From a virus: a stretch of DNA of 19,383 bases. Shown here in pieces: positions 1-19,383 of this stretch. The stretch's first letter is position 1, and each line of letters opens with the position of its first letter. A model generated the notes under the pieces. The model was not told the origin of the DNA and made no database searches. It was given only the letters and a program-made list of their open reading frames with translations. Made by a program: the position numbers and the translations under genes. The stretch is from UHGV virus genome UHGV-1344012; one strand, 5' to 3'.

Positions 1-73
1 ACAACCTCGGGTTTCGGCAGGGCGTAAAGCGTGGTGTTGCCCTCCACGCAGTTAACATGACGGGCGTTAGTGG

Positions 74-1387
74 TTAACTTACTGATTTTAATAATCCTCC
101 CGTACTGCTCTCGTGGCTATGGGGCATCAATGGGGCAAAATCTGCCAGCTTCTGATTCAGCATTGCGATCTGCTCTGCGCTGCTGTCAGCCATCCATGCA
201 CCGTAAACATTGAACACCATCTGCGCGCTCGCATGCCCCATCTGACTGGCAATAAAACTCGGGTTTGCACCAGCAGATAATGACCAGCACGCATAGGTAT
301 GTCGTGACTGGTACGCCTTTCTGTGTCTGATCCCCGCGCGCTTTAGTGCAGCTTCCCATGAGTCGCCTACTGAATCGACCCGGTAGATAAATCCGACCTG
401 CTTACTGCGTCTGACCACATGCGGGTTAAAGACGAATGTACACTCATGGTTCACCGAACGACCGTACTCACGTAACTGCACTTCAATGTGATATTGCCTG
501 CCCAGCCTTGTCATTTCAGCCTGATTTTTCAGGATACTGATTGCGGGCTGGATAAGATGCACCACTCGATCTGTACTTGCCTCGGTTTTCGGTAGAGTGA
601 ACTCACCAAGTTTCGTATAATTACGCCTGACGGTAATTGTTCCCGCCTTCAGGTCGATATCTTCCCAGGCCAGGGAGACCAGTTCCCCGTGACGCATTCC
701 TGTGTACACTGCTAATGACCACAGGTTTTTCGTCTGCTGATGCCGGCATGCATCTATCAGGCGAATAAATTCATCACGAGACAGAGGATCTGGTTCTGCC
801 CTGGCTTTTTTCAGAGGTTTAATTCCCTCGAATGGGTTCACCTCTAAGTAACCGTGATCCGCAGCAAACTGAAACATTCCGGCCATTGTCGTCATGTAAT
901 AGTTCACAGTAACAACGCTTCGCCCTTTTGCCGGGGCTTTATTTTTCGTCGGACTCTGATAACCAGTTAGCAAATCTTTCCTAAGATACAGCAATTCCTC
1001 TTTGGTTACTGCTGACACCAGGCGATTACCTCCGATCCTCGGCACCATATTCCTTGCGACAGATTCATAGCGATTGAATGCGTTCGCGCAGATTTCCATC
1101 CGTTTCAGATCCAGCCATTTTTCTTCAAGTTCTTTCACTGTAATGTCTTTTTTACTTACACCAAAAGCCTTGAGGTTAGGGGAGTCAGGAAACTGGGTTG
1201 CATAATCAAAGGTTCCTGTGCGGATGGCAAAACATACTGATGTCCGCAGTTCCCCGGCTACCTTTCTGTTCTTAGCGGTGTCAGGGACACCGAGACTTTC
1301 CCTGACACGCTTACCTTTAAAATTAAACCAGATGCGTAATGTGCCACCGTGGTTTTCGACGCCTGTTGGATATGTGACTTTATCCAT
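74..1387 (-). CDS. int: Tyrosine-type site-specific integrase (phage integrase family)
   Basis: 437-aa ORF with a C-terminal region typical of tyrosine recombinases (...SRHTYACWSL..., downstream H/Y residues) and an N-terminal arm-binding-like region. Strong RBS (GGAGGT) upstream of ATG at 1385-1387; TAA stop at 74-76. Sits next to an excisionase-like gene. Confidence 0.9.
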   Translation of the reverse strand: MDKVTYPTGVENHGGTLRIWFNFKGKRVRESLGVPDTAKNRKVAGELRTSVCFAIRTGTFDYATQFPDSPNLKAFGVSKKDITVKELEEKWLDLKRMEICANAFNRYESVARNMVPRIGGNRLVSAVTKEELLYLRKDLLTGYQSPTKNKAPAKGRSVVTVNYYMTTMAGMFQFAADHGYLEVNPFEGIKPLKKARAEPDPLSRDEFIRLIDACRHQQTKNLWSLAVYTGMRHGELVSLAWEDIDLKAGTITVRRNYTKLGEFTLPKTEASTDRVVHLIQPAISILKNQAEMTRLGRQYHIEVQLREYGRSVNHECTFVFNPHVVRRSKQVGFIYRVDSVGDSWEAALKRAGIRHRKAYQSRHTYACWSLSAGANPSFIASQMGHASAQMVFNVYGAWMADSSAEQIAMLNQKLADFAPLMPHSHESSTGGLLKSVS

Positions 1388-4675: not shown

Positions 4676-4998
4676 GCTGCACCGCCTTCAACGTTACGTA
4701 ACCAGATGCATACCGCGCCATCTTCGGTGTTGTGAATTGAACCGACAAACCAACCTTCACCGGCTGGCGATTCTGGCTGCCAGGCTGAAATATCGTAACC
4801 ATCAACTTCAGGATCGATGTCTTCTTCATCCCGGTAAACTACCGTCCATTCGAGGCCGTTTTTATCCAGCCAGGCGTTGAACTCATCAGGTGAGATAAAT
4901 TCACGACCATCGCAAAATTGCTCATAGACGGGGTGAGTCCANNNNNNNNNNTAGCCGTATTGGTCGCGTTCTACTGGTAATGCCGTAAATTTGCTCAT
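4672..4998 (-). CDS. Hypothetical protein (interrupted by a 10-nt N run)
   Basis: 108-aa ORF in operon context with overlapping stop/start to its neighbours; N run at 4942-4951 lies inside it, so the sequence and frame there are unverified. Confidence 0.45.
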   Translation of the reverse strand: MSKFTALPVERDQYGXXXXWTHPVYEQFCDGREFISPDEFNAWLDKNGLEWTVVYRDEEDIDPEVDGYDISAWQPESPAGEGWFVGSIHNTEDGAVCIWLRNVEGGAA

Positions 4999-6896: not shown

Positions 6897-6952
6897 AAAA
6901 ATTCCTTATTAACTGATGATCAAAGTGGTATCAGTGAGTTTGTTGTTGCGGA

Positions 6953-7324
6953 TCACTGAGCCGCTTTAAGCTTTCCGTCCACCGCGCCGGTGATCCCGAA
7001 CAGTTGCCCCTGATCCTCCTGGAGGATGGTTAGCTTCCCGCCTTTGTTAACCCACATAGGGGTTTCGGTTGTGTCCTCTTCGGAGGCTTTACCGCGCGGG
7101 GTTGGGGTGCTGTAGTTCAGCTTGTGCTTGATCTTGACGCGCTTCTCTTCAACGGAATTACCCATACGCTCAAAATCAAAGGTGAGGACTACTTTGCCTT
7201 TGTTGCCGTTGTTCAGAACGCCAAGCGCGGTGGTGTTAAGTGCTGCCGCGATTTTGTTCATGAACACACCGGCATCCAGCTCGCCCAAAAAGTCGGGCAC
7301 TACGGTCATGCGGTCATTACTCAT
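6953..7324 (-). CDS. Hypothetical protein, first gene of the leftward early operon
   Basis: 123-aa ORF starting at ATG 7322-7324 with GAGGG RBS. The track ORF extends to 7603 only because a 10-nt N run (7347-7356) masks the upstream frame; that upstream part looks non-coding. Confidence 0.55.
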   Translation of the reverse strand: MSNDRMTVVPDFLGELDAGVFMNKIAAALNTTALGVLNNGNKGKVVLTFDFERMGNSVEEKRVKIKHKLNYSTPTPRGKASEEDTTETPMWVNKGGKLTILQEDQGQLFGITGAVDGKLKAAQ

Positions 7325-7486
7325 GGTTTTACCCTCGTTATGGCGGNNNNNNNNNNCTGCCACCGCCGAACTTTCTCCATACACAACAGAGAAGGGCACC
7401 TGCATTTGTCGGCGACTGCAATCGCTATCCTCTTGCCCGGGTGGATTGGGGAATGAGCCCGTCGCCCGGTGATGCCCTTGTCTCTT

Positions 7487-7518
7487 GTGTAAAAAAGGTG
7501 CCCACCGATGTGATGGGC
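7487..7518 (-). terminator. Candidate intrinsic terminator in the pL leader (tL-like)
   Basis: On the minus strand: GCCCAUC-ACAUC-GGUGGGC hairpin (7 bp incl. one G-U), then ACC and UUUUUU. The 3-nt spacer before the U-tract weakens the call. Confidence 0.35.
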
Positions 7519-7878
7519 AAAGACTACACACAGCAATGATGTTGTTGTGGCGGTGGTGCCTCCACCTGCCGGACCGGCCAGAACCGGCGACGCTACACCA
7601 CAAGAAACGTATTCATTTCAAAAGTTGAAATAAAAACTTGTTGGCCTCGTCACGTGCGCAGAGCCGCATTACCACAACGGTGAGAGCACTGTTTACCTGC
7701 TTTACCGCGTCGCGTCTCACGCAGTCCGATAATCAGCAATGCTCTCGCCTGTTGTGCCCTTAAAAAGCTGGCTGTCACCCTCAAGGGGAAAGAGAGCAGC
7801 CAGAACAGGGAACACGTCTTATTGCTTTGGCCTGCTTTTAACCACATCAGGCGCGGTGGTTTGGTGTCGACAGAAAAA

Positions 7879-7945
7879 AATCTAACTTAACTTAGTTTTC
7901 TGGTCAAGTGAAAACATCAAACTAAACTTAGCTTGATGCTTAGAG
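7879..7945 (-). promoter_or_regulatory. Candidate pL promoter with OL operator cluster
   Basis: Minus-strand -35 TTGACC (complement of 7902-7907), 17-bp spacer, -10 TAGATT (complement of 7879-7884). Near-palindromes with CTAAG/CTTAG half-sites overlap it (ctaacttaacttag at 7882-7895; ctaaacttag at 7922-7931). Confidence 0.45.
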
Positions 7946-7961
7946 GAAGAGTGGGAAGGGA

Positions 7962-8588
7962 TTAGAGTTCGTACTGAACGCCTTTAACAACGCCAATAAT
8001 GAGGCAGTTACCATTGATCGGGATGTTGGGGTAGCGAGGATTTAGTGGCACTAAAAATTTTTGTGGGCCATCAATGACAAGTTTTTTAACAGTCGCTTCA
8101 TTAGTGCCATCAAGACGCGCAACCACAATCTTGCCATGAAGGGGTTCGGCATCTGGATCAACAATAACGGTTGCCCCTTCAGGGATTGTTGGGAGGCCAT
8201 TTGGATTGGTCATTGAATCCCCTTTGACCTCTAAAGCGAACGAGTTATCCCCAATGCGAAGTGATGTTTCAACCCATTTATCGACATCACTGAACAAATC
8301 AGCGGCTTTACATTCCGTGAACTGCCCAGCTTGAACCCATGAAATCACCGGGACACGCCTCATTTTAGTTATGAGGGTGCCTTCAAATTCAGTGCCGTAA
8401 AGAATGTAATCTATTGATGTGTTAAAGAATTTCGCCAGCTTAACCAGCGATTCACCGTTTGGGATATTCACATCCTTTTCCCAATAACCCACCGCTACGT
8501 CACTAACCCCGCAGAACTTACCCAGTTCTTTTTGAGAGGTTCTTGTAACCCTACGTAGGGCTTTAATGCGCTGACCAACCGTTTCCAT
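7962..8588 (-). CDS. cI: CI-type prophage repressor (P22 C2-like; N-terminal HTH, C-terminal S24 LexA-like peptidase)
   Basis: 208-aa ORF with an N-terminal HTH (…QKELGKFCGVSDVAVGYWEK…) and C-terminal S24 catalytic dyad context (…EVKGDSMTNP… Ser; …EATVKKLV… Lys). Divergent from cro across an operator-rich intergenic region. Confidence 0.9.
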   Translation of the reverse strand: METVGQRIKALRRVTRTSQKELGKFCGVSDVAVGYWEKDVNIPNGESLVKLAKFFNTSIDYILYGTEFEGTLITKMRRVPVISWVQAGQFTECKAADLFSDVDKWVETSLRIGDNSFALEVKGDSMTNPNGLPTIPEGATVIVDPDAEPLHGKIVVARLDGTNEATVKKLVIDGPQKFLVPLNPRYPNIPINGNCLIIGVVKGVQYEL

Positions 8589-8610
8589 GAAAGCACCAAG
8601 TTTAAAAAAG

Positions 8611-8681
8611 ACTAAGTAATCTTAGTTTTTATTGACCAAAGTTAGATTGGTTATTAATATCTAACCAAACTTAGCTAAGGA
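8611..8681 (+). promoter_or_regulatory. OR operator cluster with candidate pR promoter and cro RBS
   Basis: Perfect palindrome ACTAAGTAATCTTAGT (8611-8626); -35 TTGACC (8632-8637), 17-bp spacer, -10 TAATAT (8655-8660); inverted repeat GTTAGAT…ATCTAAC (8641-8665); palindrome CTTAGCTAAG (8670-8679); AGGAGG RBS before cro. Confidence 0.55.
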
Positions 8682-8687
8682 GGCTTC

Positions 8688-8879
8688 ATGACAACCGACG
8701 AGATTGAACAACATTTCGGCAGCACTGAAAAAGTTGCCGAATTTTTTGGCATCACCAGTGAGGCCGTTTACCAGTGGCGTAACCGCCCCGCTGCTGAAGC
8801 TGCGTATCGAACTGCTGGTGAACTGGAATTTAACCCAGAACGTTATGGCAAGAATACATCGCCAAGCGATCAGAAATAA
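8688..8879 (+). CDS. cro: Cro-like repressor (P22 Cro family)
   Basis: 63-aa ORF immediately right of OR with AGGAGG RBS. Sequence (…IEQHFGSTEKVAEFFGITSEAVYQW…) resembles P22 Cro as recalled. Confidence 0.8.
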   Translation: MTTDEIEQHFGSTEKVAEFFGITSEAVYQWRNRPAAEAAYRTAGELEFNPERYGKNTSPSDQK

Positions 8880-8901
8880 CCACAGAAGGGAGGACCTAGC
8901 C

Positions 8902-9450
8902 GTGGGTATAGAACCTGAATGGAAAGTAGATAAGCAGCCAGCCTGGCTGGTGGCCGCAATCAAAAAAACGATCACCGAGCTGCCTGGCGGATATTCAGAA
9001 GCTGCTGAGTGGTTGGGTGTGACCGAGAACGCGCTGTTTAACCGGCTGCGTACCGATGGCGATCAGATCTTCCCGCTCGGTTGGGCGATGGTGCTTCAAC
9101 GTGCTGGTGGTTCAAACCACATAGCGAACGCTATTGCACGTCACTCGAACGGTGTTTTCGTGCCATTGGCTGACGTTGAAGAAATAGAGAACGGTGACAT
9201 CAACCAGCGTCTTATGGAGTCAGTGGAGTGGATCGGCAGGCATTCGCAATACGTTCGCAAAGCTACCGCTGACGGCGTTATTGATGCTCAGGAACGCGCC
9301 CAGATTGAAGAGAACAGCTATCAGGTGATGGCTAAGTGGCAGGAACATTTGACGCTGCTTTTCCGTGTGTTTTGTGCGCCGGAAAAAGGTGACGCCCGCG
9401 AGTGTGCAGCTCCGGGCGTCGTGGCAGACAAATCTTGTATGGAGAAGTAA
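8902..9450 (+). CDS. CII-like regulatory protein (Phage_CP76-like, tentative)
   Basis: 182-aa ORF starting at GTG 8902-8904, 8 nt after a GGGAGG RBS and just after the cro stop. The track's ATG at 8704 would overlap cro in another frame. CII-like assignment rests on position and recalled family resemblance. Confidence 0.5.
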   Translation: MGIEPEWKVDKQPAWLVAAIKKTITELPGGYSEAAEWLGVTENALFNRLRTDGDQIFPLGWAMVLQRAGGSNHIANAIARHSNGVFVPLADVEEIENGDINQRLMESVEWIGRHSQYVRKATADGVIDAQERAQIEENSYQVMAKWQEHLTLLFRVFCAPEKGDARECAAPGVVADKSCMEK

Positions 9451-9622
9451 TCCGCATGACCAGTTTAACGGCTTTTAACCGTTTGCCGCAACTCAGGATG
9501 ATCCCGGTACCGGGCGCTCCGTTGTTTCGGTATGAACGCAGAATAGCAAACCGCTGGGTGCCATGTAACCACAGTCGGGCGGTCGCAATTGTGGGGGTTT
9601 ACTACAGGAAGGCGAAACGCTT

Positions 9623-9802
9623 ATGCGCGAAGTTAACCGAAGGTTCAAAGACCACAGAGGGATCCCCGTTCGGGTTATCAGGTGGGAGCCAGAGACTCAA
9701 CGAGTTATCTACCTGCGGGATGGATATGACCACGAATGTTTCAGCCCGCTCGAACAATTCAAGCGCAAGTTTACAGAGTTAAAGGACGACCATGAGCACT
9801 AA
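9623..9802 (+). CDS. Small hypothetical protein (59 aa), translationally coupled to the replication gene
   Basis: Hand translation: MREVNRRFKDHRGIPVRVIRWEPETQRVIYLRDGYDHECFSPLEQFKRKFTELKDDHEH. Its TAA overlaps the ATG of the O-like gene (ATGAGCACTAA). It competes with a track ORF (9402-9782) in another frame, so this is uncertain. Confidence 0.35.
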   Translation: MREVNRRFKDHRGIPVRVIRWEPETQRVIYLRDGYDHECFSPLEQFKRKFTELKDDHEH

Positions 9803-10646
9803 ATTAACGGGTTACGTTTGGGATGCTTGTGCCGCTTCTGGCATGAAGCTATCCAGCGTTGCCATCATGGCGCGTCTGGCAGACTTCAGCAGTGATGAAG
9901 GGGTTAGCTGGCCTTCCATCGCTACCATCGCGCGCCAGATTGGTGCTGGTGAGAGCACGGTTCGTACAGCCATATCTCAGCTGGAAAAAGATGGTTGGTT
10001 AACCCGCCAGCAGCGCCGTAAAGGCAACCGAAATGCATCGAACGTTTACCAGCTCAATGTTGCTAAATTGCAGGCTGCTGCCTTTTCTCACCTGTCAGAT
10101 TCTGACGCATCAAAATCTGATGCCTCAAAAACCGACGCGTCAAAATCTGAGGCATCAAAAAACGATGAAAAAGGCGGTTTTCACCCGTCAGAATCTGGGG
10201 GGGATCCGTCAGTAAATACAACTACTGATCCATCAGTTAAAAAACCTTCTTGTCCGGTTGCGCCGCAACCAGACCCTGAAGTGATGATCACCGATAACGC
10301 CATCCTGGTTCTGAATCATCTGAACCTGGTTAGTGGCTCACGATACCAAAAATCAAAAACTTCTCTGGAAAACATCCGTGCTCGTCTGCGTGAAGGTTAC
10401 ACCGTTAGCGACTTACAGCTGGTGATCGACCTTAAGCATGAGCACTGGAACGGCAATGACGTGCAGTACCAGTACATGCGTCCTGAAACGCTCTTCGGTC
10501 CGAAAAAATTTGAAGGTTATCTGCAAAGCGGGATCCGCTGGGACAAGAAGGGGCGGCCACCGCGTGACAGCTGGGGTGAAAAGAAACATGACCCGATGAA
10601 GTTCGGTCCGGTTGATAGCAAGATTCCAGAGGGGTTCAGAGGATGA
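9792..10646 (+). CDS. Replication initiation protein (O-like; N-terminal winged-HTH, low-complexity linker, conserved phage C-terminal domain)
   Basis: 284-aa ORF with an N-terminal HTH-like region and a conserved C-terminus (…LNHLNLVSGSRYQKSKTSLENIRARLREGYT…). The central DASKS-type repeats are encoded by tandem 15-bp DNA repeats that look like origin iterons, as in lambda O. Confidence 0.65.
   Translation: MSTKLTGYVWDACAASGMKLSSVAIMARLADFSSDEGVSWPSIATIARQIGAGESTVRTAISQLEKDGWLTRQQRRKGNRNASNVYQLNVAKLQAAAFSHLSDSDASKSDASKTDASKSEASKNDEKGGFHPSESGGDPSVNTTTDPSVKKPSCPVAPQPDPEVMITDNAILVLNHLNLVSGSRYQKSKTSLENIRARLREGYTVSDLQLVIDLKHEHWNGNDVQYQYMRPETLFGPKKFEGYLQSGIRWDKKGRPPRDSWGEKKHDPMKFGPVDSKIPEGFRG
10101..10160. 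repeat. Four tandem 15-bp direct repeats (candidate origin iterons) inside the O-like gene
   Basis: tctgacgcatcaaaa / tctgatgcctcaaaa / accgacgcgtcaaaa / tctgaggcatcaaaa, each with a short internal dyad (e.g. GACGCGTC), followed by an A-rich stretch (aaaaacgatgaaaaagg). Confidence 0.6.
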
Positions 10647-11196
10647 TGGAAAATAAATACTGCCGTGCACTGGCTGAACTCCGTTCAAAACCAGCACACG
10701 AGTTGAAAGAGGTCGGTGATCAATGGCGCACTCCGGATCTGTTGTTTTGGGGGATCAATGCGATGTTCGGCCCTCTGGTGTTGGACCTTTTTGCCGACGA
10801 CAGCAACGCGAAGTGCCCAGCATGGTACACGGCTGAAGATAATGCCCTGACGCAGGATTGGTCAGAGCGGCTGGCAGAACTCGGTGGTGCCGGGTTTGGC
10901 AACCCGCCTTACAGCCGCTCTCAGTACCACGACAAGCAGGCCGTTACCGGAATGACCCACATCATTAACCACGCTATGGCCATGCGAGAAAAGGGTGGTC
11001 GGTACGTTTTTCTCATTAAGTCTGCGACGAGTGAAACGTGGTGGCCGGTAGAGGCAGATCACGTCACATTCATCCGTGGCCGAATTGGTTTCGATCTTCC
11101 TACATGGTTCGTGCCGAAAGACGAAAAGCAGCAGCCCACCAGCGCATTTTTTGCTGGCGCTATCGTGGTCTTCGACAAAACATGGTGGGGTGAGCG
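10643..11196 (+). CDS. Phage Dam-type DNA N6-adenine methyltransferase (3' end lost in an N run)
   Basis: Motifs typical of the phage N6-adenine methyltransferase family: …QWRTPDLLF…, …NAKCPAWYTAED…, and catalytic NPPY (…GFGNPPYSRS…). ATG overlaps the O-like stop. A 46-nt N run (11197-11242) truncates the visible ORF, so the true end is unknown. Confidence 0.8.
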
Positions 11197-11253
11197 NNNN
11201 NNNNNNNNNNNNNNNNNNNNNNNNNNNNNNNNNNNNNNNNNNCCCAATTTGCC

Positions 11254-11961
11254 GTGGGAAGAACGCAAACTGATGCGGCGCCGGAGCTGGACGCTGAGGT
11301 AGTGCCGGAGAAATCAGAGGCAGAACTGCCATTAACCCAAAAAGCCATTCTGGAAACCAGCGGTGTAGAGGCTTGGGCCTGTGTTGTCGCGGCGGTCGGC
11401 AAGAAAGACGAGTACACCTTCAGCGCGTCAAAGTTTGGTCATACCTGGGCTGCCGACTCTCTGGAAAACCCTGAATTTACCAATGTTTCACCGCTGACGA
11501 TCGACAGAGCGAAAAAGCTGATCAGCGAGAGCATCCTGGTGGGTGTTAATGCATGGCTGGAAACATTGCCCTTTGATAGCGATGACGTGAAACAAGACAT
11601 GTCAGAGCGGTTACGCACGGTTGCCGTTGAGTCTGCGAAAGAATACGGCATTAACCACAGTGAATTCATCGCGACCATGGAAAGCCTGGATAAAGCCAAA
11701 TGGTCAAATATTCGGGGGATCCGCGCCCATGTCCGTGAGACGCAGGAATCAAAGGACAAGGCGTTAAACGAATCGCGCGTTTGGCCTCTTGAGGTTGGAC
11801 TGGTGTTTAACCAGATTGAAGGGGCTGACGCTCTACCTGTTTCGCAGCAGAACAAGCTGAAAGCCAACATCAATCAACTCTGGCTGGAACGAACGGCCAC
11901 CAGCGAAATCATTACTGCCGCTTCTGAACTTGTTCGCAATATGCGGGGAGAGGCCGCGTGA
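11254..11961 (+). CDS. Hypothetical protein (true start unresolved because of the upstream N run)
   Basis: 235-aa ORF from the first in-frame GTG after the gap; the real start may lie within the gap. Its stop overlaps the rusA start. No motif recognised. Confidence 0.5.
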   Translation: MGRTQTDAAPELDAEVVPEKSEAELPLTQKAILETSGVEAWACVVAAVGKKDEYTFSASKFGHTWAADSLENPEFTNVSPLTIDRAKKLISESILVGVNAWLETLPFDSDDVKQDMSERLRTVAVESAKEYGINHSEFIATMESLDKAKWSNIRGIRAHVRETQESKDKALNESRVWPLEVGLVFNQIEGADALPVSQQNKLKANINQLWLERTATSEIITAASELVRNMRGEAA

Positions 11962-12344
11962 AACTGATCCTGCCTTTTCCTCCGAGCGTGAACACTTACT
12001 GGCGCGCCCCTAATAAGGGGCCGCTGGCCGGTCGTCACCTCATTAGCGCTGATGGTCGTAAATACCAGAGCGCTGCCTGCGTGGCGATCATTGAGCAATT
12101 ACGACGTCTCCCGAAGCCATCGACTGAACTGGCAGCGGTTGAAATCACTCTGTACCCGCCGGATGCGCGCCGCCGGGATATCGATAATTACAACAAAGCC
12201 CTGTTTGACGCGCTGACGCATGCGGGTGTCTGGGAAGACGACAGCCAGATTAAGCGCATGCTGGTGGAATGGGGACCCGTAGTGCCGAAAGGTCGGGTAG
12301 AGATAACGATCAGCAGATATGAACCGGCGGGTGCAGCCGCCTGA
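11958..12344 (+). CDS. rusA: RusA-family Holliday junction resolvase
   Basis: 128-aa ORF with RusA-like conserved residues (…RRRDIDNYNKALFDALTHAGVWEDDSQI…) and typical lambdoid nin-region position. Confidence 0.85.
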   Translation: MKLILPFPPSVNTYWRAPNKGPLAGRHLISADGRKYQSAACVAIIEQLRRLPKPSTELAAVEITLYPPDARRRDIDNYNKALFDALTHAGVWEDDSQIKRMLVEWGPVVPKGRVEITISRYEPAGAAA

Positions 12345-12357
12345 TATGGAGAAAAGT

Positions 12358-13041
12358 ATGAGCCAATTAGCAACAACAGCATTAACCATGTCCAGCAGCG
12401 ATATTGCTGAGCTGGTGGAATCACGACATGACCATGTTAAACGGTCCATTGAACGCCTGGCAGAGCGCGGTGTTATTGAACTCCCCCCAATGGGGGAAGT
12501 TAAAAATCACCTCAATCAGTCGGTATCGGTTTATCTGATAGGGAAGCGGGACAGTTATATCGTTGTCGCGCAGCTGTCGCCGGAGTTTACCGCGCGTCTG
12601 GTTGATCGCTGGCAGGAGCTTGAGCAGGCACAGCAGCAGACGATTCCTCAATCATTCTCTGAAGCCCTACGTCTTGCAGCTGACCTTGCAGAACAAAAAC
12701 AACAGTTGACTAACGAACTGGCTGCCGCTGCGCCGAAGGTAGCGTTTGTTGATCGGTACTGTACAGCCAGTGGGTCAATGTCATTCCGCCAGGTGGCAAA
12801 ACTGCTTAAGGCCAAAGAGCCAGATCTGCGGTTATTCCTCCTTGAGAACGACATCATGTATCGCCTTGGCGGAACGATGACCCCACGGCATCAGCATATT
12901 GATGCGGGCCGTTTTGAAATGAAAACCGGCACATCCGTAACCTCAAATCATGCATTCAGCCAGGCACGTTTCACGGCGAAAGGCGTGCGCTGGATTGGTG
13001 GACTGTGGGCAGAACACATTGCCAGGGGGCAGGTCGCGTGA
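12358..13041 (+). CDS. Antirepressor-like protein (Rha-like N-terminus, KilA-C/ANT-like C-terminus)
   Basis: Start placed at ATG 12358 (MSQLATT…) with GGAG RBS just after the rusA stop. N-terminal region resembles phage Rha regulatory proteins and the C-terminal region (…AFVDRYCTASGSMSFRQVAKLL…) resembles KilA-C/ANT domains, as recalled. Confidence 0.6.
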   Translation: MSQLATTALTMSSSDIAELVESRHDHVKRSIERLAERGVIELPPMGEVKNHLNQSVSVYLIGKRDSYIVVAQLSPEFTARLVDRWQELEQAQQQTIPQSFSEALRLAADLAEQKQQLTNELAAAAPKVAFVDRYCTASGSMSFRQVAKLLKAKEPDLRLFLLENDIMYRLGGTMTPRHQHIDAGRFEMKTGTSVTSNHAFSQARFTAKGVRWIGGLWAEHIARGQVA

Positions 13042-14033
13042 GAGCTCTGCTTACCCCCGAGATCGCCCATCGTATGGGGATTGTGCTGTTCCGTCCCGGT
13101 ACGGAACTGATGCACCTCTTCATGCGTGGTCGCGTTCTGCTCGAGCCTGAACCAGAAGAAATGGCGTCATTCAGTACCGGGGCTGTTCCGGCAGCCATTC
13201 AGCCGCTAGCTGATGATCCGGTAATGCGTCAGGTCTTCGAGAATGAGAGGGTTATTCAGCGTGCCGGTGGGCTTCCTTCCCTTGAGCAATGGTTGAGTAA
13301 TCGGTTTGAATGCCAGTGGCCACATTCAACGTGGCACGACAAGAACTTCACAACAATGCGGCACCCACCAGGAAGTATTCGCCTGTGCTGGCATTGCGAT
13401 CACACTTTGTCGGGGCAGCATACCGAACAGCTTGCAGGTATAGCGGCCGGAAACCTGGTATCCTGGATTCTGGAAGTCATTCGGCGTGATTCTGGTTTTC
13501 CCGAGTCGCATATCCTGACGCTTCCTGAACTGTGCTGGTGGATGGTCAGAAACGACCTGGCTGATGTTATTCCGGAAAGCGTTGCGCACAAAGGGTTGCG
13601 CCTTCCGGATGAGAAGATCCGTTCTGTCATGAGGGAAAGCGACATAGTGCCTTCCTCGTCAGCAACCAGACTCGTGCAGGAGAAGGCGAAGAAGATCCTC
13701 ACGCTCTCTGTTGATCCGGAGTCGCCAGAGTCTTTTATGCTCAGGCCAAAACGTCGCCGCTGGATAAATGAGACGTACACCCGCTGGGTTAAAACACAAC
13801 CCTGTGAGTGTTGCCGACGGCCAGCAGATGATCCGCACCATATCGTAGGGCACGGTATGGGTGGTACAGCAACAAAAGCCCATGACCTCTTCGTGATCCC
13901 TCTGTGCAGAGAGTGCCACGACGAGTTACACGCCGATGTACCAGCATTCGAGCAGAAGCATGGTACGCAGCTTGAGCTGCTACTGCGTTTTATTGATCGA
14001 GCACTGGCGATCGGCGTAATTGCGACAGCTTAA
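13038..14033 (+). CDS. DUF968 family protein (YdfU-like), Cys/His-rich C-terminus
   Basis: 331-aa ORF starting at GTG 13038 (GTGA overlap with the upstream stop; AGGGGG RBS). C-terminal Cys/His cluster (…CECCRRPADDPHHIVGHG…CRECHDELH…) and position just upstream of Q match YdfU-like proteins as recalled. Confidence 0.6.
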   Translation: MRALLTPEIAHRMGIVLFRPGTELMHLFMRGRVLLEPEPEEMASFSTGAVPAAIQPLADDPVMRQVFENERVIQRAGGLPSLEQWLSNRFECQWPHSTWHDKNFTTMRHPPGSIRLCWHCDHTLSGQHTEQLAGIAAGNLVSWILEVIRRDSGFPESHILTLPELCWWMVRNDLADVIPESVAHKGLRLPDEKIRSVMRESDIVPSSSATRLVQEKAKKILTLSVDPESPESFMLRPKRRRWINETYTRWVKTQPCECCRRPADDPHHIVGHGMGGTATKAHDLFVIPLCRECHDELHADVPAFEQKHGTQLELLLRFIDRALAIGVIATA

Positions 14034-14049
14034 GAAGTATGGAGACCGT

Positions 14050-14880
14050 ATGAATCTGGACAATGTTTTAAAGTTTTTTGCGCCTAAAGGCATGCACATC
14101 TCAGATACCAGCAGAGCGACAGCAAGTGAGCAACTTACTGTGACTGATGTAATGGCTGCACTGGGGATGACTCAGGCTGATGCAGGCATCGGGCTGGCAA
14201 TGTTTCTAGGTAAAGCTGGTATCAGCAGCAAGGACAGGGAGATGTCAATTGCCTGGCTAACGGAGTACGCGAAAGAGCATGCGCCCATGGCTATTCGTAA
14301 AGCATCAGGGAAAAAGTTTCCCCTCTGCATGCGTATCCTTGCCCGGTTTGCCTATAACGATTATTCCTCATCAGCAGCTGATTGTGTGGCATGCCCAAAA
14401 TGTAGTGGTAAAGGGTTGCTTACAACCACTAAAACCGTGACTAAAAGCCATTACACAATGCGATTGCCACAATGGGCAAAAGACCTGAGACAGTCACCAT
14501 CTGACTTTGAGGTAAAGCGAGAAGTAACTGACTCCGAGCAAAGTTTATGTTCGCGATGCCATGGTACCGGAAAGTTAAGTAAGCGATGCCAGTGTGGCGG
14601 AACTGGCAAGACGGTTGACCGTAAAGCGACAGAACTGCAGGGCGTACCAGTTTACAAAGAATGTAAGCGCTGCGAAGGGCGGGGATACAGCAGGCCAAAA
14701 TCATCGGTTGCCTATCGAGGTGTTTTTTCTGAGTTGCCGAGTCTGCCTGACCGAACGTGGCGTTATAGCTGGAAACCATTCTATGAAAGCCTGGTGACCA
14801 AATGTTTCCAGGAGGAGAGTTATTCAAGCTCTCAACTGAATCGGGTGACTAAAAGTGAAGATGTGATAAATATCGCGTAA
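14050..14880 (+). CDS. Late-gene antiterminator Q-like protein (phage 82 Q / QuuQ-type, Zn-finger-like), copy 1
   Basis: Start set at ATG 14050 (MNLDNVLKFF…) with GGAG RBS, by alignment to the paralog at 17269. Cys-rich motifs (CPKCSGKG; CSRCHGTGK…CQCGGTGK; CKRCEGRG). Followed immediately by a consensus-like promoter and intrinsic terminator, the classic Q-pR'-tR' arrangement. Confidence 0.7.
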   Translation: MNLDNVLKFFAPKGMHISDTSRATASEQLTVTDVMAALGMTQADAGIGLAMFLGKAGISSKDREMSIAWLTEYAKEHAPMAIRKASGKKFPLCMRILARFAYNDYSSSAADCVACPKCSGKGLLTTTKTVTKSHYTMRLPQWAKDLRQSPSDFEVKREVTDSEQSLCSRCHGTGKLSKRCQCGGTGKTVDRKATELQGVPVYKECKRCEGRGYSRPKSSVAYRGVFSELPSLPDRTWRYSWKPFYESLVTKCFQEESYSSSQLNRVTKSEDVINIA

Positions 14881-14923
14881 TTTAGCGTCATGATGTTTGC
14901 AATGTTGCCGTATTTGTGTATAT

Positions 14924-14951
14924 TTGACATCAATGATGGGCTTTGTATAAC
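14924..14951 (+). promoter_or_regulatory. Candidate late promoter pR' (Q utilisation region)
   Basis: -35 TTGACA (14924-14929), 16-bp spacer, -10 TATAAC (14946-14951), located 44 nt after the Q1 stop. The predicted start site falls in the N run at 14958-14974. Confidence 0.5.
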
Positions 14952-14979
14952 TATCGANNNNNNNNNNNNNNNNNGATAA

Positions 14980-15002
14980 CCTCACCTCGGTGGGGTTTTT
15001 TT
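14980..15002 (+). terminator. Intrinsic terminator (tR'-like) downstream of pR'
   Basis: Hairpin CCTCAC-CTCG-GTGGGG (one G-U pair) followed by seven T (14996-15002). Confidence 0.6.
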
Positions 15003-15013
15003 ATGGTGATAGT

Positions 15014-15550
15014 ATGGAACTGACTAAAGAAAATGTTGCATTAATTGCTGCTTTGGGGATTTTTGTGGGTACATTGATAACTTCTCTTACAAGTTACCTC
15101 CAGAACAGTAGTAGGCAGTCGCATGAGTGGCGCTCAGAAAGAAATAGAAGGAAAATTGAAAAGGGTGAACAGCTTTATGAGGCATTAATACTTTATAAAA
15201 AATTGCTTTTTGCCAATCATATGAGCTGGATAAATTGTATTGATGGGTGTTTTAAATCTGAGGACATTGGCGATAAATCAGACGAAATTCTCAGTAAAAA
15301 CCCTGAGTATAAAGGAGTTGGTGATAGAATTATTTTAATCTCTGGTGTTTATTTTCCTGAGATTAGCGTTATGTTTGATGAATCTAGAAAATTGCTGAAA
15401 CCAGCCAATTCTGTTTTCTTCAAAATACAGTCAGGTGAAGTTGACGATAAGAAGTTGGCGAAGAATATAATTCTAAACGCTGGTCATAATTTTGATAAGG
15501 AGGCTAATAAAATGTTGGACTGTTTATCGAAAGAGATTAGATCGTTGTAA
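15014..15550 (+). CDS. AT-rich cargo (moron) gene: membrane-anchored protein of unknown function
   Basis: 178-aa ORF from ATG 15014 (MELTKENV…) with one N-terminal hydrophobic helix (ALIAALGIFVGTLITSLTSYL) and a Lys/Glu-rich soluble domain. Visibly much more AT-rich than the flanking phage genes; bracketed by two intrinsic terminators. The track's GTG start at 14990 lies inside the terminator hairpin. Confidence 0.6.
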   Translation: MELTKENVALIAALGIFVGTLITSLTSYLQNSSRQSHEWRSERNRRKIEKGEQLYEALILYKKLLFANHMSWINCIDGCFKSEDIGDKSDEILSKNPEYKGVGDRIILISGVYFPEISVMFDESRKLLKPANSVFFKIQSGEVDDKKLAKNIILNAGHNFDKEANKMLDCLSKEIRSL

Positions 15551-15568
15551 CAACTCAAAATTAACGAA

Positions 15569-15592
15569 GGTCACCAGATGGTGGCCTTTTTT
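15569..15592 (+). terminator. Intrinsic terminator after the cargo gene
   Basis: Hairpin GGTCACC-AGAT-GGTGGCC (one G-U pair) followed by TTTTTT (15587-15592), then TATT. Confidence 0.6.
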
Positions 15593-15638
15593 ATTCCCCT
15601 CGTTCTGAGAGGACTCACAGCAATAAAGAGGGGGCTAA

Positions 15639-16025
15639 ATGTCCGATCCGATTTCCGGTACTGGGCTGGCTGGTGGTGTCCTGACGGGAGCTAGCGTCTA
15701 TGGATTTCTGTCCGGAACCGATTACGGCGTGGTGTTTGGCGCATTTGCCGGAGCTGTATTTTACATTGCAACAGCTGCGGACCTTAGTGCAACGCGTCGG
15801 CTGGCGTATTTTGTCGTGTCCTACATCGCCGGGATCATCTGCTCAGGGCTGGTGGGTTCAAAGCTGGCTGACTGGACTGGTTACAGTGATAAGCCTCTGG
15901 ATGCCATCGGTGCCGTAATCGTTTCGGCTTTAGCTGTCAAAATCCTGACGTTCCTGAATAACCAGGATGTCGGCTCTTTGGTGGCGCTGATAACGCGCCG
16001 GGGAGGTTCTGGTGGTACTAAATGA
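15639..16025 (+). CDS. Holin-like membrane protein (about 4 predicted TM segments)
   Basis: 128-aa Gly/Ala-rich ORF with several hydrophobic stretches, GAGGGGG RBS, first gene of the lysis cassette upstream of the endolysin. Confidence 0.6.
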   Translation: MSDPISGTGLAGGVLTGASVYGFLSGTDYGVVFGAFAGAVFYIATAADLSATRRLAYFVVSYIAGIICSGLVGSKLADWTGYSDKPLDAIGAVIVSALAVKILTFLNNQDVGSLVALITRRGGSGGTK

Positions 16026-16293
16026 CCCATCGGCAACAATCAACGCTCTTCTATGCGTCGGGGTGGTGATTACCCTGATGTTTTATCGTCGTGGTGATTC
16101 ACGCCATCGTCCGTGGGTTTCGCGTTTAGCCTGGCTAATTACTGTCACGTACAGCGCTGTGCCTCTGGCCTACCTGTGCGGGATTTATCCTCATTCGTCA
16201 TGGGCCACTATTGGGGCCAACATTATTTTCCTTTCCGTGCTAGTGGCCGTCAGAGGCAACGTTGCGCGCCTGGTTGATCATCTGAGGCACTAA
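16012..16293 (+). CDS. Second holin-like membrane protein (3 predicted TM segments)
   Basis: 93-aa ORF starting at GTG 16012 with GGGAGG RBS 5 nt upstream; overlaps the end of the preceding gene and ends at the endolysin start (TAATG). Three hydrophobic helices. Confidence 0.5.
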   Translation: MVLNDPSATINALLCVGVVITLMFYRRGDSRHRPWVSRLAWLITVTYSAVPLAYLCGIYPHSSWATIGANIIFLSVLVAVRGNVARLVDHLRH

Positions 16294-16907
16294 TGAACCA
16301 ATCACAATTTCAAAAGGCGGCTGGCATTAGCGCCGGGTTAGCTGCGCGCTGGTTTCCGCACATTGATGCTGCAATGAAAGAGTTTGGAATCACAGCAGTT
16401 AACGATCAGGCCATGTTCATTGCACAAGTTGGGCATGAATCTGCTGGTTTTACCTCGCTGGTGGAAAGCTTCAACTACTCGGTAGACGGGCTGAAGAAAA
16501 CCTTTAGTAAACGCCTGACGCCTTATCAGTGTGAAATGCTGGGGCGTGTCGATGGTAAGCAGGTAGCCCACCAGCCGCAAATAGCCAATCTGGTTTATGG
16601 TGACCGCATGGGGAATAACAGCCAGGGTGACGGCTGGAAATATCGCGGTCGTGGCCTGCTGCAAATCACTGGTCGTGAGAACTACACCAAATGCGGTACG
16701 GCGCTGAAGCTTGACCTTGTGAGCACTCCGGAACTATTGACGCAAGAGCGACACGCGGCCCGTTCGGCGGCATGGTACTTCACGTTACGCGGTTGTCTCC
16801 TCTATTCGGGGGATGTGGAACGCGTCACGCAGATTATTAACGGCGGGCAGAACGGCATTAAAGACCGCCGTGAACGTTACGCCAAAGCTAAAGCCGCACT
16901 GGTGTGA
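16293..16907 (+). CDS. Endolysin, glycoside hydrolase family 19 (chitinase-like lysozyme)
   Basis: 204-aa ORF with GH19-like conserved regions (…QAMFIAQVGHESAGFTSLVESFNYS…, …GWKYRGRGLLQITGRENY…) as in Salmonella/E. coli phage GH19 endolysins; follows the holin-like genes. Confidence 0.8.
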   Translation: MNQSQFQKAAGISAGLAARWFPHIDAAMKEFGITAVNDQAMFIAQVGHESAGFTSLVESFNYSVDGLKKTFSKRLTPYQCEMLGRVDGKQVAHQPQIANLVYGDRMGNNSQGDGWKYRGRGLLQITGRENYTKCGTALKLDLVSTPELLTQERHAARSAAWYFTLRGCLLYSGDVERVTQIINGGQNGIKDRRERYAKAKAALV

Positions 16908-16914
16908 GGTCACT

Positions 16915-17265
16915 ATGGGACTTGAAATGATTATCGGCCTGATTGTTGCCGCGCTGGCAGCAATTGCAGGTGCCTTTGGTCTGGGTAAATCTCGCGGTAC
17001 CAGTATCGCAGAAACAAAAGCGGACCGTATGGGTTATGAGAGCCTCGACAAAGACGAACAGGCCGCAATCAATCTTCCTGCCTCAATGATTCGCTTGTTG
17101 AAGCAACGAGAGGGCGAAGGGTGGATCGGTGACATCGGAGCTAATTTCGACTCTCGCTCTCACCAGTTCCTGGAAGGCGAGAAAAAACCATTTAACTACC
17201 TGGTCGGTAAGCCGCAAAGCGAGTTTGATCTCGAGTGGGAAGCCAGCAACGTAACGAGGGTTTGA
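16915..17265 (+). CDS. Small membrane-anchored protein in the spanin position (function unknown)
   Basis: 116-aa ORF from ATG 16915 (GAGG RBS) with one N-terminal TM helix (MIIGLIVAALAAIAGAFGL). It lacks the long coiled coil expected of an Rz-type i-spanin, so the spanin role is not supported. Confidence 0.45.
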   Translation: MGLEMIIGLIVAALAAIAGAFGLGKSRGTSIAETKADRMGYESLDKDEQAAINLPASMIRLLKQREGEGWIGDIGANFDSRSHQFLEGEKKPFNYLVGKPQSEFDLEWEASNVTRV

Positions 17266-17268
17266 GAT

Positions 17269-18101
17269 ATGAAACTTGAAGCTTCACTAAAACACTTTAG
17301 CCCTCAGGGTATGCACATCAGCGACGACGTGAAAGGAACCTCTCCGGACCGCCTTACAGGAACAGATGTAATGGCGGCAATTGGCACCACCANNNNNNNN
17401 NNNNNNNNNNNNNNNNNNNNNNNNNNNNNNNNNNNATCAGCAAAACGGATGAACAGCTCGCAGTTCAGGCGCTGGCGCGATATGCGATGGATGTCGCACC
17501 GAAGAATGTTCGCAAAGCAGCTGGTGGGCAGTTCGGATGGTGCATGCAGATGTTGGCACAATTTGCCTTTGCTGATTATTCACGTTCGGCGGCTACAAGC
17601 GTGACGTGTCACAGCTGCAGTGGTACCGGACGAACAACCCGCGAACAGATTACCCGCAAGGTTTCGTACCCATGGGGTAAAGCTCCATACTGGGCCTGCC
17701 GCTCTCGTGCTGTTCGACCGTCTGACTGGGAGCAGTGGATGGAGGTAACAGAGGTTGTACCGGCGGTCTGTGATGCTTGCGAAGGCAAGGGAACGATCAG
17801 CGCCCGTTGTCGTTGCGGCGGTAAAGGCGAGGTTCTAGACCGCAAGGCCACAAGCGAGCGCGGCGCGCCGGTGTTTAAAACCTGCGAGCGCTGCAGCGGA
17901 AATGGATTTTCTGCGGTGCCGTCTACCGCAGCCTATAAAGTGATACTGAAGCGCGTTCCGGATCTGCACGTCAGAACATGGACTCGCAACTGGAAACCGT
18001 TTCTTGAGGCGCTGGTAAGCATTTGTCAGCAGGAGGAGGGAAACGCCGCAAGAGAATTTCAATCTGCAACCAGTTTAGGCGAAGAAGGTGACGAAATTTA
18101 G
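17269..18101 (+). CDS. Second Q-like antiterminator paralog (interrupted by a 43-nt N run)
   Basis: N-terminus (MKLEASLKHFSPQGMHISD…TGTDVMAAIG) and C-terminal Cys-rich region (CHSCSGTG…; CDACEGKG…CRCGGKG…; CERCSGNG; …RTWTRNWKPF…) align with Q1. Span is not a multiple of 3, so the N run (17393-17435) does not reflect true length. GAGGG RBS before ATG 17269. Confidence 0.65.
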
Positions 18102-18190
18102 CATTATTACGACATAAGGCTTGATTTTGTCCGAAGTTGTCGTGTATGCTTCTAATCATGCGGAGTAACGCCTGAAAGATTTCAACAATA

Positions 18191-18211
18191 AGCCCCTTGC
18201 GGGGCTTTTTT
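18191..18211. terminator. Bidirectional intrinsic terminator between Q2 and the convergent orphan gene
   Basis: Perfect hairpin AGCCCC-TTGC-GGGGCT followed by a T-tract on the plus strand and preceded by an A-rich run (T-rich for the minus-strand transcript). The minus-strand gene's stop codon (18210-18212) overlaps the T-tract. Confidence 0.65.
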
Positions 18212-19160
18212 ATGGCAGCGAGTTAACGAAAGAACTGAAAAGGGCCTTATCTTTATTGCTAATTGATTTTTTCAAATGTAGTTGATGATTTAAAGGTTTA
18301 AAGTTTTCCTTTGTGAGATATATACATGCTTTCTCAAAACGATCCTGAAGGAATTGAAATCTTTCATTCAGCCTGGAAACTTTTAATCCTAATGACATGA
18401 CCTTCTTCTCAGGAATATCGTCAGGATTGCAATTATTGAGTTCTTCCAGCACAAGGCGAATATCTCTTTCGAAGATTAGCGCTATGTTATAATCGTTGAG
18501 GAGGCATTCAGGATTACGAACAATGCCAATTACTTCGTCGATGAATTGTGGTTTTACATTATCCTCAGCATTTTCATCTTCGTTATCGGAAGGTTTTTGA
18601 GACATAACATTCGACAACTGCATTTCTTCCTTGGTTTTCCTTCTGGGAAGTAAAACTTTTCCATCTCCTAAAGCAGCCATACGTTTCAAAGCTTGACTCC
18701 CGGCTCGGCCAACTACTTTAGAATCTCTTAAATCTAAAATTTTATGTGCGACCCATTCTAATGATGGTTCACTGGCTTCGATTTTGGCTTTTGCTTGGTA
18801 ATGGAGAAAAATATTTTTCTTGGCTTCCTTGAGGGCTGTTAGATATCTGTGGAAATTTGCCTTTTTCTCGAGGTCAGTGGCTAGGTTTTCAAATGCTATA
18901 CCGAAGACTTTTGTACCGCAAACGTGACCCAGGTTCGTCTCCAGACCATCCTCAGTAAGAACAAGAAACCCTTTTTTATGGCCTGTTCGACAGCTCGACT
19001 TGCCACACGGGATTTCTTCCGGGAGGTCATCATAATAACCAAAAACATCGGATAATTGTTGATCGGTCAGTTCCAGCCTGGAATGATAGCTTTCCCGAGC
19101 TTGAATTTCTGTCCAGTCATTAATGCGATCAAAGCTATTGCCGTTTTTAATAAAAATCAT
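18210..19160 (-). CDS. AT-rich orphan protein of unknown function (316 aa)
   Basis: Long uninterrupted ORF with a GGGA-type RBS before ATG 19158-19160. Visibly AT-rich relative to the phage backbone, with an acidic low-complexity stretch (SDNEDENAEDN) and a Cys/His cluster (PCGKSSCRTGHKKG…GHVCG). No recognisable family by eye. Confidence 0.6.
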   Translation of the reverse strand: MIFIKNGNSFDRINDWTEIQARESYHSRLELTDQQLSDVFGYYDDLPEEIPCGKSSCRTGHKKGFLVLTEDGLETNLGHVCGTKVFGIAFENLATDLEKKANFHRYLTALKEAKKNIFLHYQAKAKIEASEPSLEWVAHKILDLRDSKVVGRAGSQALKRMAALGDGKVLLPRRKTKEEMQLSNVMSQKPSDNEDENAEDNVKPQFIDEVIGIVRNPECLLNDYNIALIFERDIRLVLEELNNCNPDDIPEKKVMSLGLKVSRLNERFQFLQDRFEKACIYLTKENFKPLNHQLHLKKSISNKDKALFSSFVNSLP

Positions 19161-19285
19161 ATCTTCCCTTGCTCTGGTTAGATTGAAAGCACTGCCGCTT
19201 GATATTTAACCATTTCCCTGATTGTTTTTCATCATAAAACCATATTATTGCAAGGGTAGTTTTACCTATGTATCTTCTTGCTCCC

Positions 19286-19362
19286 GGCCCTTTAGCTCAG
19301 TTGGTTAGAGCGTGCGACTCATAATCGCCCGGTCGCTGGTTCAAGTCCAGCAAGGGCCACCA
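19286..19362 (+). tRNA. tRNA with CAU anticodon (Ile2-lysidine type or Met; ileX/ileZ-like)
   Basis: Cloverleaf readable by eye: acceptor GGCCCTT/AAGGGCC, D-arm GCTC-AGTTGGTTA-GAGC, anticodon loop CTCATAA (CAT), T-arm GCTGG-TTCAAGT-CCAGC, discriminator A and encoded CCA. A candidate promoter (TTGCAA 19248-19253, 17-bp spacer, TATCTT) and GC-rich discriminator lie upstream. Confidence 0.85.
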
Positions 19363-19383
19363 GACCGCCACTAGCTCATCGGG

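Follow-up and report, generated by a model that had tools for sequence, protein, structure and literature searches.

Two antiterminator cassettes around one lysis cassette

The UHGV virus genome UHGV-1344012 was analysed as one stretch of 19,383 nucleotides (nt), here called the window, and its right-hand part from position 14050 onward carries two genes for antiterminators of the lambda Q family, termed Q1 and Q2. Each of them is followed by a putative late promoter (PR'1 and PR'2) and by a predicted intrinsic terminator (tR'1 and tR'2). In between lie an open reading frame (ORF) termed orf178, a set of two holin-type genes and a GH19 endolysin gene (lysis cassette 1), and an ORF fused from parts of a spanin gene and a primase/helicase gene, while a reverse ORF and a transfer RNA (tRNA) gene follow behind Q2 (coordinates in Table 1). 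A first-pass annotation, made from the letters of the window, had described two paralogous Q-like antiterminators flanking one lysis cassette, and had explained them either as a recombinational mosaic of two late-control modules or as a degraded prophage. The present analysis located the junction of the two modules in the fused ORF and found virion genes behind the equivalent region in relatives.

Both proteins match the PF03589 profile 'Antiterm' (3.8e-46 for Q1 and 6.2e-54 for Q2, cut-off 26.7 bits), which represents the Q-lambda family (PMC9388147), and RefSeq already annotates the Q proteins as antitermination proteins. The proposed paralogy was confirmed by pairwise alignment, in which Q1 and the intact Q2 of a 99-100% identical relative share 46% identity over 269 amino acids (aa; E=1e-84). 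The position of Q2 behind the endolysin is likewise as described, with the fused ORF intervening. Compared with lambda Q (PDB 7ubm, 5.6e-44), residues 1-112 of Q1 correspond to lambda Q 1-114 and residues 176-268 to lambda Q 114-207. Relative to lambda Q, Q1 and Q2 each have about 63 additional aa where the body meets the zinc-ribbon arm (Q1 residues 113-175, window 14386-14575). This insertion adds two CxxCxGxG motifs and brings their number to four, as in the cysteine-rich domain of DnaJ. A sub-threshold match to the DnaJ CxxCxGxG domain is found in both proteins. Four such motifs point to an additional zinc site and to an extended arm for contact with DNA. Such long forms are common, as can be seen from the profile length of phrog_127 (253) and from phi80 Q, which is 40% identical.

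The reading frame of Q2 is interrupted in the window by masked letters. Five runs of N are present (4942-4951, 7347-7356, 11197-11242, 14958-14974 and 17393-17435), and at three of the five the length could be compared with the true sequence in 99-100% identical relatives. All three differ, 17 N standing for 7 nt (TCACTAT), 43 N for 47 nt and 46 N for 59 nt, so that such masks can create false frameshifts. As written, the 43-N run places the two halves of Q2 out of frame; since the run lengths are unlike the real sequence, this apparent break carries no information. The hidden stretch of 47 nt is in frame in 10/10 relatives, where Q2 comprises 278 aa in nine cases and 296 aa in one. A frameshifted Q2 pseudogene, the possibility that the first-pass annotation had seen in the N run, was rejected on these grounds, and neither a frameshift nor a premature stop was found in the relatives.

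The promoter unit downstream of Q1 consists of a -35 element TTTGCA (14896-14901), a -10 element TATATT (14919-14924) and a -10-like, putative pause element AATGAT (14932-14937), which is followed by GGG. Written in the same order, lambda PR' reads catgatATTGACT - 17 nt - TAAATT - tgactc - AACGAT - GGG and the stretch after Q1 reads catgatgTTTGCA - 17 nt - TATATT - tgacatc - AATGAT - GGG, and PR'1 matches lambda PR' (TTGACT-17-TAAATT-tgactc-AACGAT-GGG) in each element. The 17-nt spacer holds the putative Q-binding element ATGTTGCCGTATTTGTG, and PR'1 is also listed by a promoter scanner. Transcription would start near 14932 and the terminated RNA would have about 63 nt in the relatives; the N run 14958-14974 falls within this short transcript. 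The terminator tR'1 folds into an 8-bp hairpin followed by U7 (-16.1 kcal/mol, z about -2.4). Among Q1-type downstream sequences, 28 fit the strict pattern, and 25 of these 28 show a hairpin and T run at 57-67 nt, with 16 distinct hairpins. A second promoter candidate after Q1, TTGACA-16-TATAAC, was rejected, because its TTGACA overlaps the -10 and start region inside the PR'1 unit, and the upstream pair TTTGCA-17-TATATT is the one that aligns with lambda PR'.

Downstream of Q2 the corresponding elements are a -35 element TTGATT (18121-18126) and a -10 element TATGCT (18145-18150), separated by the 18-nt spacer TTGTCCGAAGTTGTCGTG as putative Q-binding element, then tct, a -10-like hexamer AATCAT (18154-18159) and GCGG. 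This arrangement is kept in 57/59 distinct Q2-type downstream sequences, with A2 and T6 of the second hexamer invariant. The terminator tR'2 forms a 7-bp GC-rich hairpin followed by U6 (-17.0 kcal/mol, z about -2.4), and the transcript ending there would be about 60 nt long. In 56 of the 57 Q2-type variants a hairpin and T run is found 56-71 nt further on, in the form of 35 distinct hairpin sequences. The predicted promoter/pause/terminator unit is conserved in dozens of distinct relatives, with varied hairpins that all keep the stem, and this conservation exceeds chance. The first-pass annotation had pointed to a promoter-like element and a strong intrinsic terminator behind each Q. The two terminators were recovered by the scan with stable folds and promoter-like elements are present at both places; the annotation gave no promoter coordinates, and its likely candidate after Q1, the TTGACA...TATAAC pair, was misplaced.

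Lambda Q binds its site in the spacer between the -35 and the -10 element (PMC9388147). PR'1 and PR'2 have putative Q-binding spacers that are unrelated in sequence, and the spacer co-varies with the type of Q, including two C-terminal subtypes of Q2-like proteins, suggesting that each Q has its own site. Moreover, of the constituents by which a Q-dependent regulatory cassette has been defined (PMC9388147), the following were found by sequence in both cases: a homologue of lambda Q, a putative sigma-70 promoter directly after the Q gene, an intrinsic terminator and late genes downstream. The latter are the holins and the endolysin of the window for Q1, and for Q2 the tRNAs, lysis cassette 2, terminase and portal genes of the relatives. 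As far as sequence can tell, each cassette has every feature expected of the Q-lambda class except for the register of the PR'2 pause element.

Between tR'1 and the holins lies orf178, which starts 10 nt past the T run of tR'1. No match to its product was found in PHROGs, PADLOC or NCBIfam, and in Pfam only a sub-threshold match to HemY_N was obtained. The ORF is 100% identical in parent-type phages with a single Q (L088, L092 and L102; numbers of this kind denote loci of the comparison), and it may be a moron that is expressed by leaky read-through of tR'1 in lysogens. It is followed by a strong predicted terminator of its own preceding lysis cassette 1, so that read-through is required to reach the cassette. 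The ORFs of lysis cassette 1 are intact in 10/10 relatives bearing the junction.

The spanin/helicase junction and its carriers

The two modules meet within the fused ORF. Up to ...GAAACAAAAGCG the window represents the i-spanin gene of the GH19-type cassette, and from AAAAGCGGACCGTATGGG... on it represents the 3' end of a primase/helicase gene, the one located immediately before Q2 in both phage SaltyDalty and E. coli AW1.7. The boundaries of the BLAST matches meet at window 17016-17026, and PHROGs assigns residues 1-38 of the fused product to an Rz-like spanin and residues 41-115 to a DNA primase. The same start (MGLEMIIG...ETKAD) is found in parent-type phage L088, where it runs on as an i-spanin of 89 aa, which overlaps an o-spanin with a lipoprotein signal. 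Cassette 1 has lost its o-spanin entirely and its i-spanin apart from this start, leaving holins and endolysin without spanins. The comparison with intact relatives, which had been proposed as a way to find the junction, placed it at a microhomology of 7 nt within this ORF. The reading as a mosaic of two late-control modules is thereby supported, and both single-Q parental arrangements exist. Single-Q phages of the Q1 type (L088, L092, L102) have the order DUF968, Q1, PR'1, orf178 and lysis cassette 1, and single-Q representatives of the Q2 type (L003, L006, L011 and others) have the order helicase, Q2, PR'2, reverse ORF, tRNAs, lysis cassette and lambda-type terminase.

The tandem arrangement is rare. 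Two Q genes were found in 0/160 IMG/VR loci with Q1-like or Q2-like genes, and 250 of 50,697 phage records hold 252 matches to the lambda Q family. Q1, lysis cassette 1 and Q2 occur together in 2/5,426 complete E. coli genomes, and the junction is present in one more. Furthermore, a limited literature search yielded no description of two Q cassettes in series or of two lysis cassettes in one prophage, only of Q genes on different prophages of one strain. The identical junction is seen in the closed E. coli chromosomes LR536430, CM129885 and CP017220 and in many draft assemblies. Exact junction patterns of 23 nt and 40 nt gave 0 matches in scans of collections of genome contigs and viral contigs, but both patterns are contained in the IMG/VR locus L008, which belongs to the viral collection, so that these negatives are unreliable. 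Ten relatives were read in detail, these being the places read among 121 index blocks of public assemblies that hold the exact 116-aa fusion protein. Among the carriers, the core from the fused ORF to the reverse ORF is nearly invariant, whereas both flanks vary. The module upstream of the holins contains Q1 in 5/10 carriers and a Q-like protein of the DUF1133 type in the other 5/10, and variation extends to lysis cassette 2 and the terminase modules. The junction appears to be recent, with later re-assortment through ordinary homologous exchange, as would be expected of a still-circulating phage. The ratio of nonsynonymous to synonymous polymorphism (pN/pS) is about 0.14 for the endolysin among carriers, and this variation probably arrived by recombination. 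With regard to the ratio of nonsynonymous to synonymous substitutions (dN/dS), the core is essentially without variation and the holins have a replaced allele at one locus. In addition, an ISL3-family transposase and an extra ORF are inserted between the Q1 unit and the holins in L173 (6009-7956), and Q2 is extended to 296 aa in L174 (10355-11245); these changes may represent either incipient decay or ordinary variation.

The relatives also show what lies beyond the end of the window. The closed E. coli chromosome LR536430 (L001) matches window 13000-19383 at 99.4%. There, the window end is succeeded by tRNA-Thr and tRNA-Gly, next by a second lysis cassette comprising a class II holin, a lysozyme and an Rz-like protein, and then by a Nu1/GpA-type terminase, portal, protease, decoration and major capsid proteins and a lambda-type tail with J and tail fibres. 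The L001 prophage has a length of about 47.4 kb, contains an integrase and is flanked by both halves of a split yecE gene. A second lysis cassette, a Nu1/GpA terminase and a portal gene follow the window-equivalent region in 10/10 relatives with the identical junction, the closest of which (L175) is 99.2-100% identical to window 6932-19383. Terminase, head and tail genes were not found inside the 19.4-kb window. The window ends 21 nt past its tRNA gene, which lies in the middle of the late region in relatives, and judged from them the absence of structural genes is an effect of the window edge. The statement of the first-pass annotation that there are no structural genes accordingly holds for the window and fails for the relatives, in which such genes begin beyond its end. 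It had also named structural genes following directly in a normal single-Q prophage as evidence against its reading; structural genes do follow, and the prophage is not a single-Q prophage.

Table 1. Features of the two Q cassettes, followed by other features of the window
Feature	Position in window	Strand	Basis and remarks
Q1, long-form lambda-Q-family antiterminator, 276 aa	14050-14880	+	PF03589, PDB 7ubm, phrog_127; start agrees with RefSeq in L001
PR'1 late promoter unit (putative)	14896-14940	+	alignment with lambda PR'
tR'1 intrinsic terminator (predicted)	stem 14978-14997, T run to ~15004	+	scan and fold
orf178, 178 aa, N-terminal hydrophobic segment	15014-15550	+	GC 0.35
Terminator after orf178 (predicted)	15566-15593	+	10-bp stem, -15.7 kcal/mol, z -3.3
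Holin	15639-16025	+	Pfam search of the cassette: PF16931, PF05449, PF00182
Second holin or antiholin	16012-16293	+	
GH19 endolysin	16293-16907	+	
Fusion ORF, 116 aa	16915-17265	+	Rz-like i-spanin aa 1-37 and primase/helicase C-terminal 81 aa, in frame
Junction, 7-nt microhomology AAAAGCG	17016-17022		alignment with both parental types
Q2, second long-form lambda-Q-family antiterminator, 278 aa in relatives	17269-18101	+	PF03589
PR'2 late promoter unit (putative)	18121-18162	+	sequence pattern, family conservation
tR'2 intrinsic terminator (predicted)	stem 18190-18207, T run to ~18213	+	scan and fold
Reverse ORF (moron), 316 aa	18210-19160	-	phrog_7003, 3.5e-118; GC 0.39
tRNA, CAU anticodon	19286-19362	+	ARAGORN and Rfam
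Integrase	74-1387	-	gene list of the window
Leftward early operon	after the integrase in gene order		
cI-like S24 repressor	7962-8588	-	
cro gene	8688-8879		
Replication/nin-type genes Phg_2220_C, Dam, RusA, Ant/KilAC, DUF968	between cro and Q1		

The prophage is inserted in yecE, a DUF72 gene, and the integrase adjoins the reconstituted end of yecE (window 1-1387; L001 7362-9427; L179 5757-5852), with the second yecE fragment lying beside yecD at a distance of about 47.4 kb from the first. Among the replication genes, the ORFs 10643-11302 and 11254-11961 are probably a single gene for a Dam methylase of 443 aa, as in L175. The guanine-plus-cytosine (GC) content of the whole window is 0.50. 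The reverse ORF travels with the Q2 module and is also found after Q2 in the single-Q prophage L003. Its product had no match in Pfam, PADLOC and NCBIfam, and phrog_7003 is a family of unknown function. The stop codon of the reverse ORF abuts the hairpin of tR'2, which might terminate transcription on both strands. A scan of the entire window with Rfam gave the tRNA gene as sole match. With its CAU anticodon it is called tRNA-Met by ARAGORN and tRNA-Ile by RefSeq in relatives, and tRNA-Thr and tRNA-Gly are annotated after tRNA-Ile in three RefSeq records (L001, L003 and L005). In L001 the tRNA cluster (26281-26589) sits between the late promoter and the second lysis cassette. Shiga toxin (Stx) phages have tRNAs in a comparable position.

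A probable hybrid late region and its possible modes of operation

Taken together, the window probably represents the left 19 kb of an apparently complete lambda-like yecE prophage, the late region of which is a hybrid that arose by crossover at AAAAGCG and contains two lambda-Q-type cassettes in series. An illegitimate crossover at the microhomology would have joined two phage genomes. The left arm would have contributed everything through Q1, PR'1, tR'1, orf178, the two holins, the GH19 endolysin and the start of the spanin, and the right arm the last 250 bp of the primase/helicase gene, Q2, PR'2, tR'2, the reverse ORF, the tRNAs, lysis cassette 2 and the lambda-type virion genes. Upon induction, the early rightward transcript would produce Q1, whose gene, as in the parent, comes last in the early rightward operon. 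Q1 would bind its own site in the PR'1 spacer and load onto RNA polymerase paused at AATGAT, and the Q1-loaded polymerase would pass tR'1 and the orf178 terminator, resulting in transcription of lysis cassette 1, the fused ORF and Q2. It would probably also continue past tR'2 into the late genes. Finally, Q2 would load at PR'2 and thereby create a second terminator-resistant stream into the tRNAs, lysis cassette 2 and the morphogenesis genes. Having lost its own spanins, cassette 1 would depend on those of cassette 2. Furthermore, the location of Q2 behind two terminators, tR'1 and that of orf178, would make its expression dependent on Q1 or on another early antiterminator.

Several points weigh against this reading. 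The continuation of the window itself we infer from relatives that are 99-100% identical. The second hexamer of PR'2 (nATnnT) starts only 3 nt after the -10 element, in the window and in the 57 variants, compared with 6-7 nt in lambda and PR'1, which makes its role as a pause element uncertain; measured from the -35 element, the second hexamer lies at similar distances of 27 nt in PR'2, 29 nt in lambda and 30 nt in PR'1. With regard to regulation, Q-loaded polymerase is processive and ignores terminators over thousands of base pairs (PMC9388147), so that Q1-loaded polymerase is expected to read through tR'2. Such read-through would make Q2 formally redundant, and one of the cassettes may be a neutral passenger. 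An early antiterminator of the N type, for which no Pfam match was obtained among ten early ORFs, could also express Q2 without Q1. Finally, the near-invariance of the junction core indicates a recent event, and intact ORFs are consequently weak evidence for selection.

It is possible, although we lean away from it, that one cassette is a silent passenger and the tandem a neutral recent accident. Q1 and PR'1 alone might drive all late genes, or else Q1 and lysis cassette 1 might be decaying, with Q2 serving as the working switch. The expected passage of PR'1 transcripts beyond tR'2 (PMC9388147) speaks for this explanation, and so do the recent origin suggested by the nearly invariant core, the missing spanins of cassette 1, the ISL3 insertion between the Q1 unit and the holins in one carrier and the altered Q2 stop in another. 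However, essentially every carrier read has an intact Q1, PR'1, holin pair, endolysin and Q2, and the block was kept while the modules on either side were exchanged. Moreover, Q2 lies behind two intrinsic terminators and cannot simply replace Q1 unless an early antiterminator exists.

At the other end stands the proposal that the tandem arrangement is a selected two-step antitermination cascade and not a neutral accident, which we regard as doubtful. A selected cascade would be in keeping with the occurrence of the block in many E. coli assemblies, in which the modules to its left and right have been exchanged, but this spread is no proof of it. If such a cascade exists, Q2 would be made only after Q1 has opened tR'1, which would provide a feed-forward delay and an amplifier for transcription of the virion genes. 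An additional holin-endolysin set without spanins would alter the timing of lysis, and the two Q proteins of the same family with non-overlapping DNA specificities would constitute a natural orthogonal pair.

A degraded or cryptic prophage that retains only regulatory and lysis genes, resembling DLP12 or Qin of E. coli K-12, was the other explanation offered by the first-pass annotation, and it is very improbable in view of the relatives. Such a remnant would be suggested by the truncated spanin of cassette 1 and by the lack of terminase, head and tail genes over 19.4 kb, but the window breaks off shortly behind a tRNA gene that lies mid-late-region in relatives, and all ten relatives with the identical junction possess terminase and portal genes, including the nearly identical L175. 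In the closed genome L001 the prophage has the full set of lambda-type virion genes. The loss of morphogenesis genes and/or of one end, by which a cryptic or defective remnant is recognised, is apparent only within the window; terminase and portal genes are present in these relatives, and both ends of the element in L001. That the tandem is an assembly artefact, or a pair of separate neighbouring prophages, borders on the negligible: the masked N runs might raise such a suspicion, but the identical junction recurs in independently assembled closed chromosomes and many drafts, no second integrase or attachment site is present, the L001 element is bounded by one split yecE gene, and the two genes are joined in frame at a microhomology.

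Comparison with known systems

The hybrid late region is neat but ordinary phage mosaicism, as all of its components are of known kinds and no new kind of system is implied. It offers a well-resolved case of mosaic formation, in which recombination at a microhomology created an in-frame spanin/helicase fusion in a hybrid that is still apparently viable and whose flanks were later re-assorted. It also provides a warning with respect to window edges, since the appearance of lysis genes without structural genes is an artefact of where the window ends. If both cassettes work, one genome would naturally contain two related Q proteins that differ in promoter specificity. Such a pair could aid studies on the recognition of Q-binding elements in the long-arm subfamily of Q-lambda proteins with four CxxCxGxG motifs, or the construction of orthogonal antitermination switches.

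One close model is the Q/PR'/6S RNA-tR' cassette of lambda. Both Q proteins are homologous to lambda Q in the N-terminal segment, the body and the zinc-ribbon arm, and the order of elements is shared, with the Q gene being followed at once by a promoter, a -10-like hexamer as putative pause element, GGG, an intrinsic terminator and lysis genes. In contrast to lambda, two cassettes are arranged in series in one genome, Q1 and Q2 are about 70 aa longer, and the spacers that represent the putative Q-binding elements differ in sequence. Furthermore, the leader RNA would have about 60 nt here, whereas the T run of the lambda terminator lies about 190 nt downstream of AACGAT, as read from the sequence.

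With respect to the proteins, the long-form Qs of phi80, mEp237, Stx2c phages and three E. coli phages of recent isolation (SaltyDalty, LMessi and Fostie) are of the same family and length class. The identity of 40% given above for phi80 Q applies to an alignment over residues 1-261, and SaltyDalty Q is 88% identical. In SaltyDalty the primase/helicase gene is succeeded by Q, the gene order from which the right side of the junction stems. Unlike the hybrid, phages of the phi80 and SaltyDalty type have a single Q each.

A similar join is found in the prophage of E. coli AW1.7 (NZ_CP073624; L004 7156-9090), where a 3' fragment of the helicase gene and Q2 are joined illegitimately to the late region of another phage. 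The breakpoints are others, 669 nt of the helicase gene being kept there versus 250 here, and on its upstream side the helicase fragment adjoins a truncated Q gene of a different type, so that one intact Q results. As this join is independent, the helicase-Q2 module has been captured at least twice.

The cryptic lambdoid remnants of E. coli K-12, such as DLP12 (quuD-essD-rrrD-rzpD) and Qin, show a Q gene followed by holin, endolysin and spanin genes with no virion genes nearby. Taken alone, the window has the same appearance. It differs from them in that virion genes lie just past the window in all relatives, the element having about 47 kb with an integrase and both ends.

Finally, there are sister hybrids, for example that of E. 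coli FAM21845 (CP017220). Their lysis cassette 1 DNA is 97% identical, the fused ORF, Q2, the reverse ORF and the tRNAs are identical, and a second lysis cassette and virion genes follow as well. They differ in the downstream lysis and terminase modules and in their first antiterminator, which is a DUF1133 protein (phrog_753, 'Q-like') with a weak match to PF06530 in the place of Q1.

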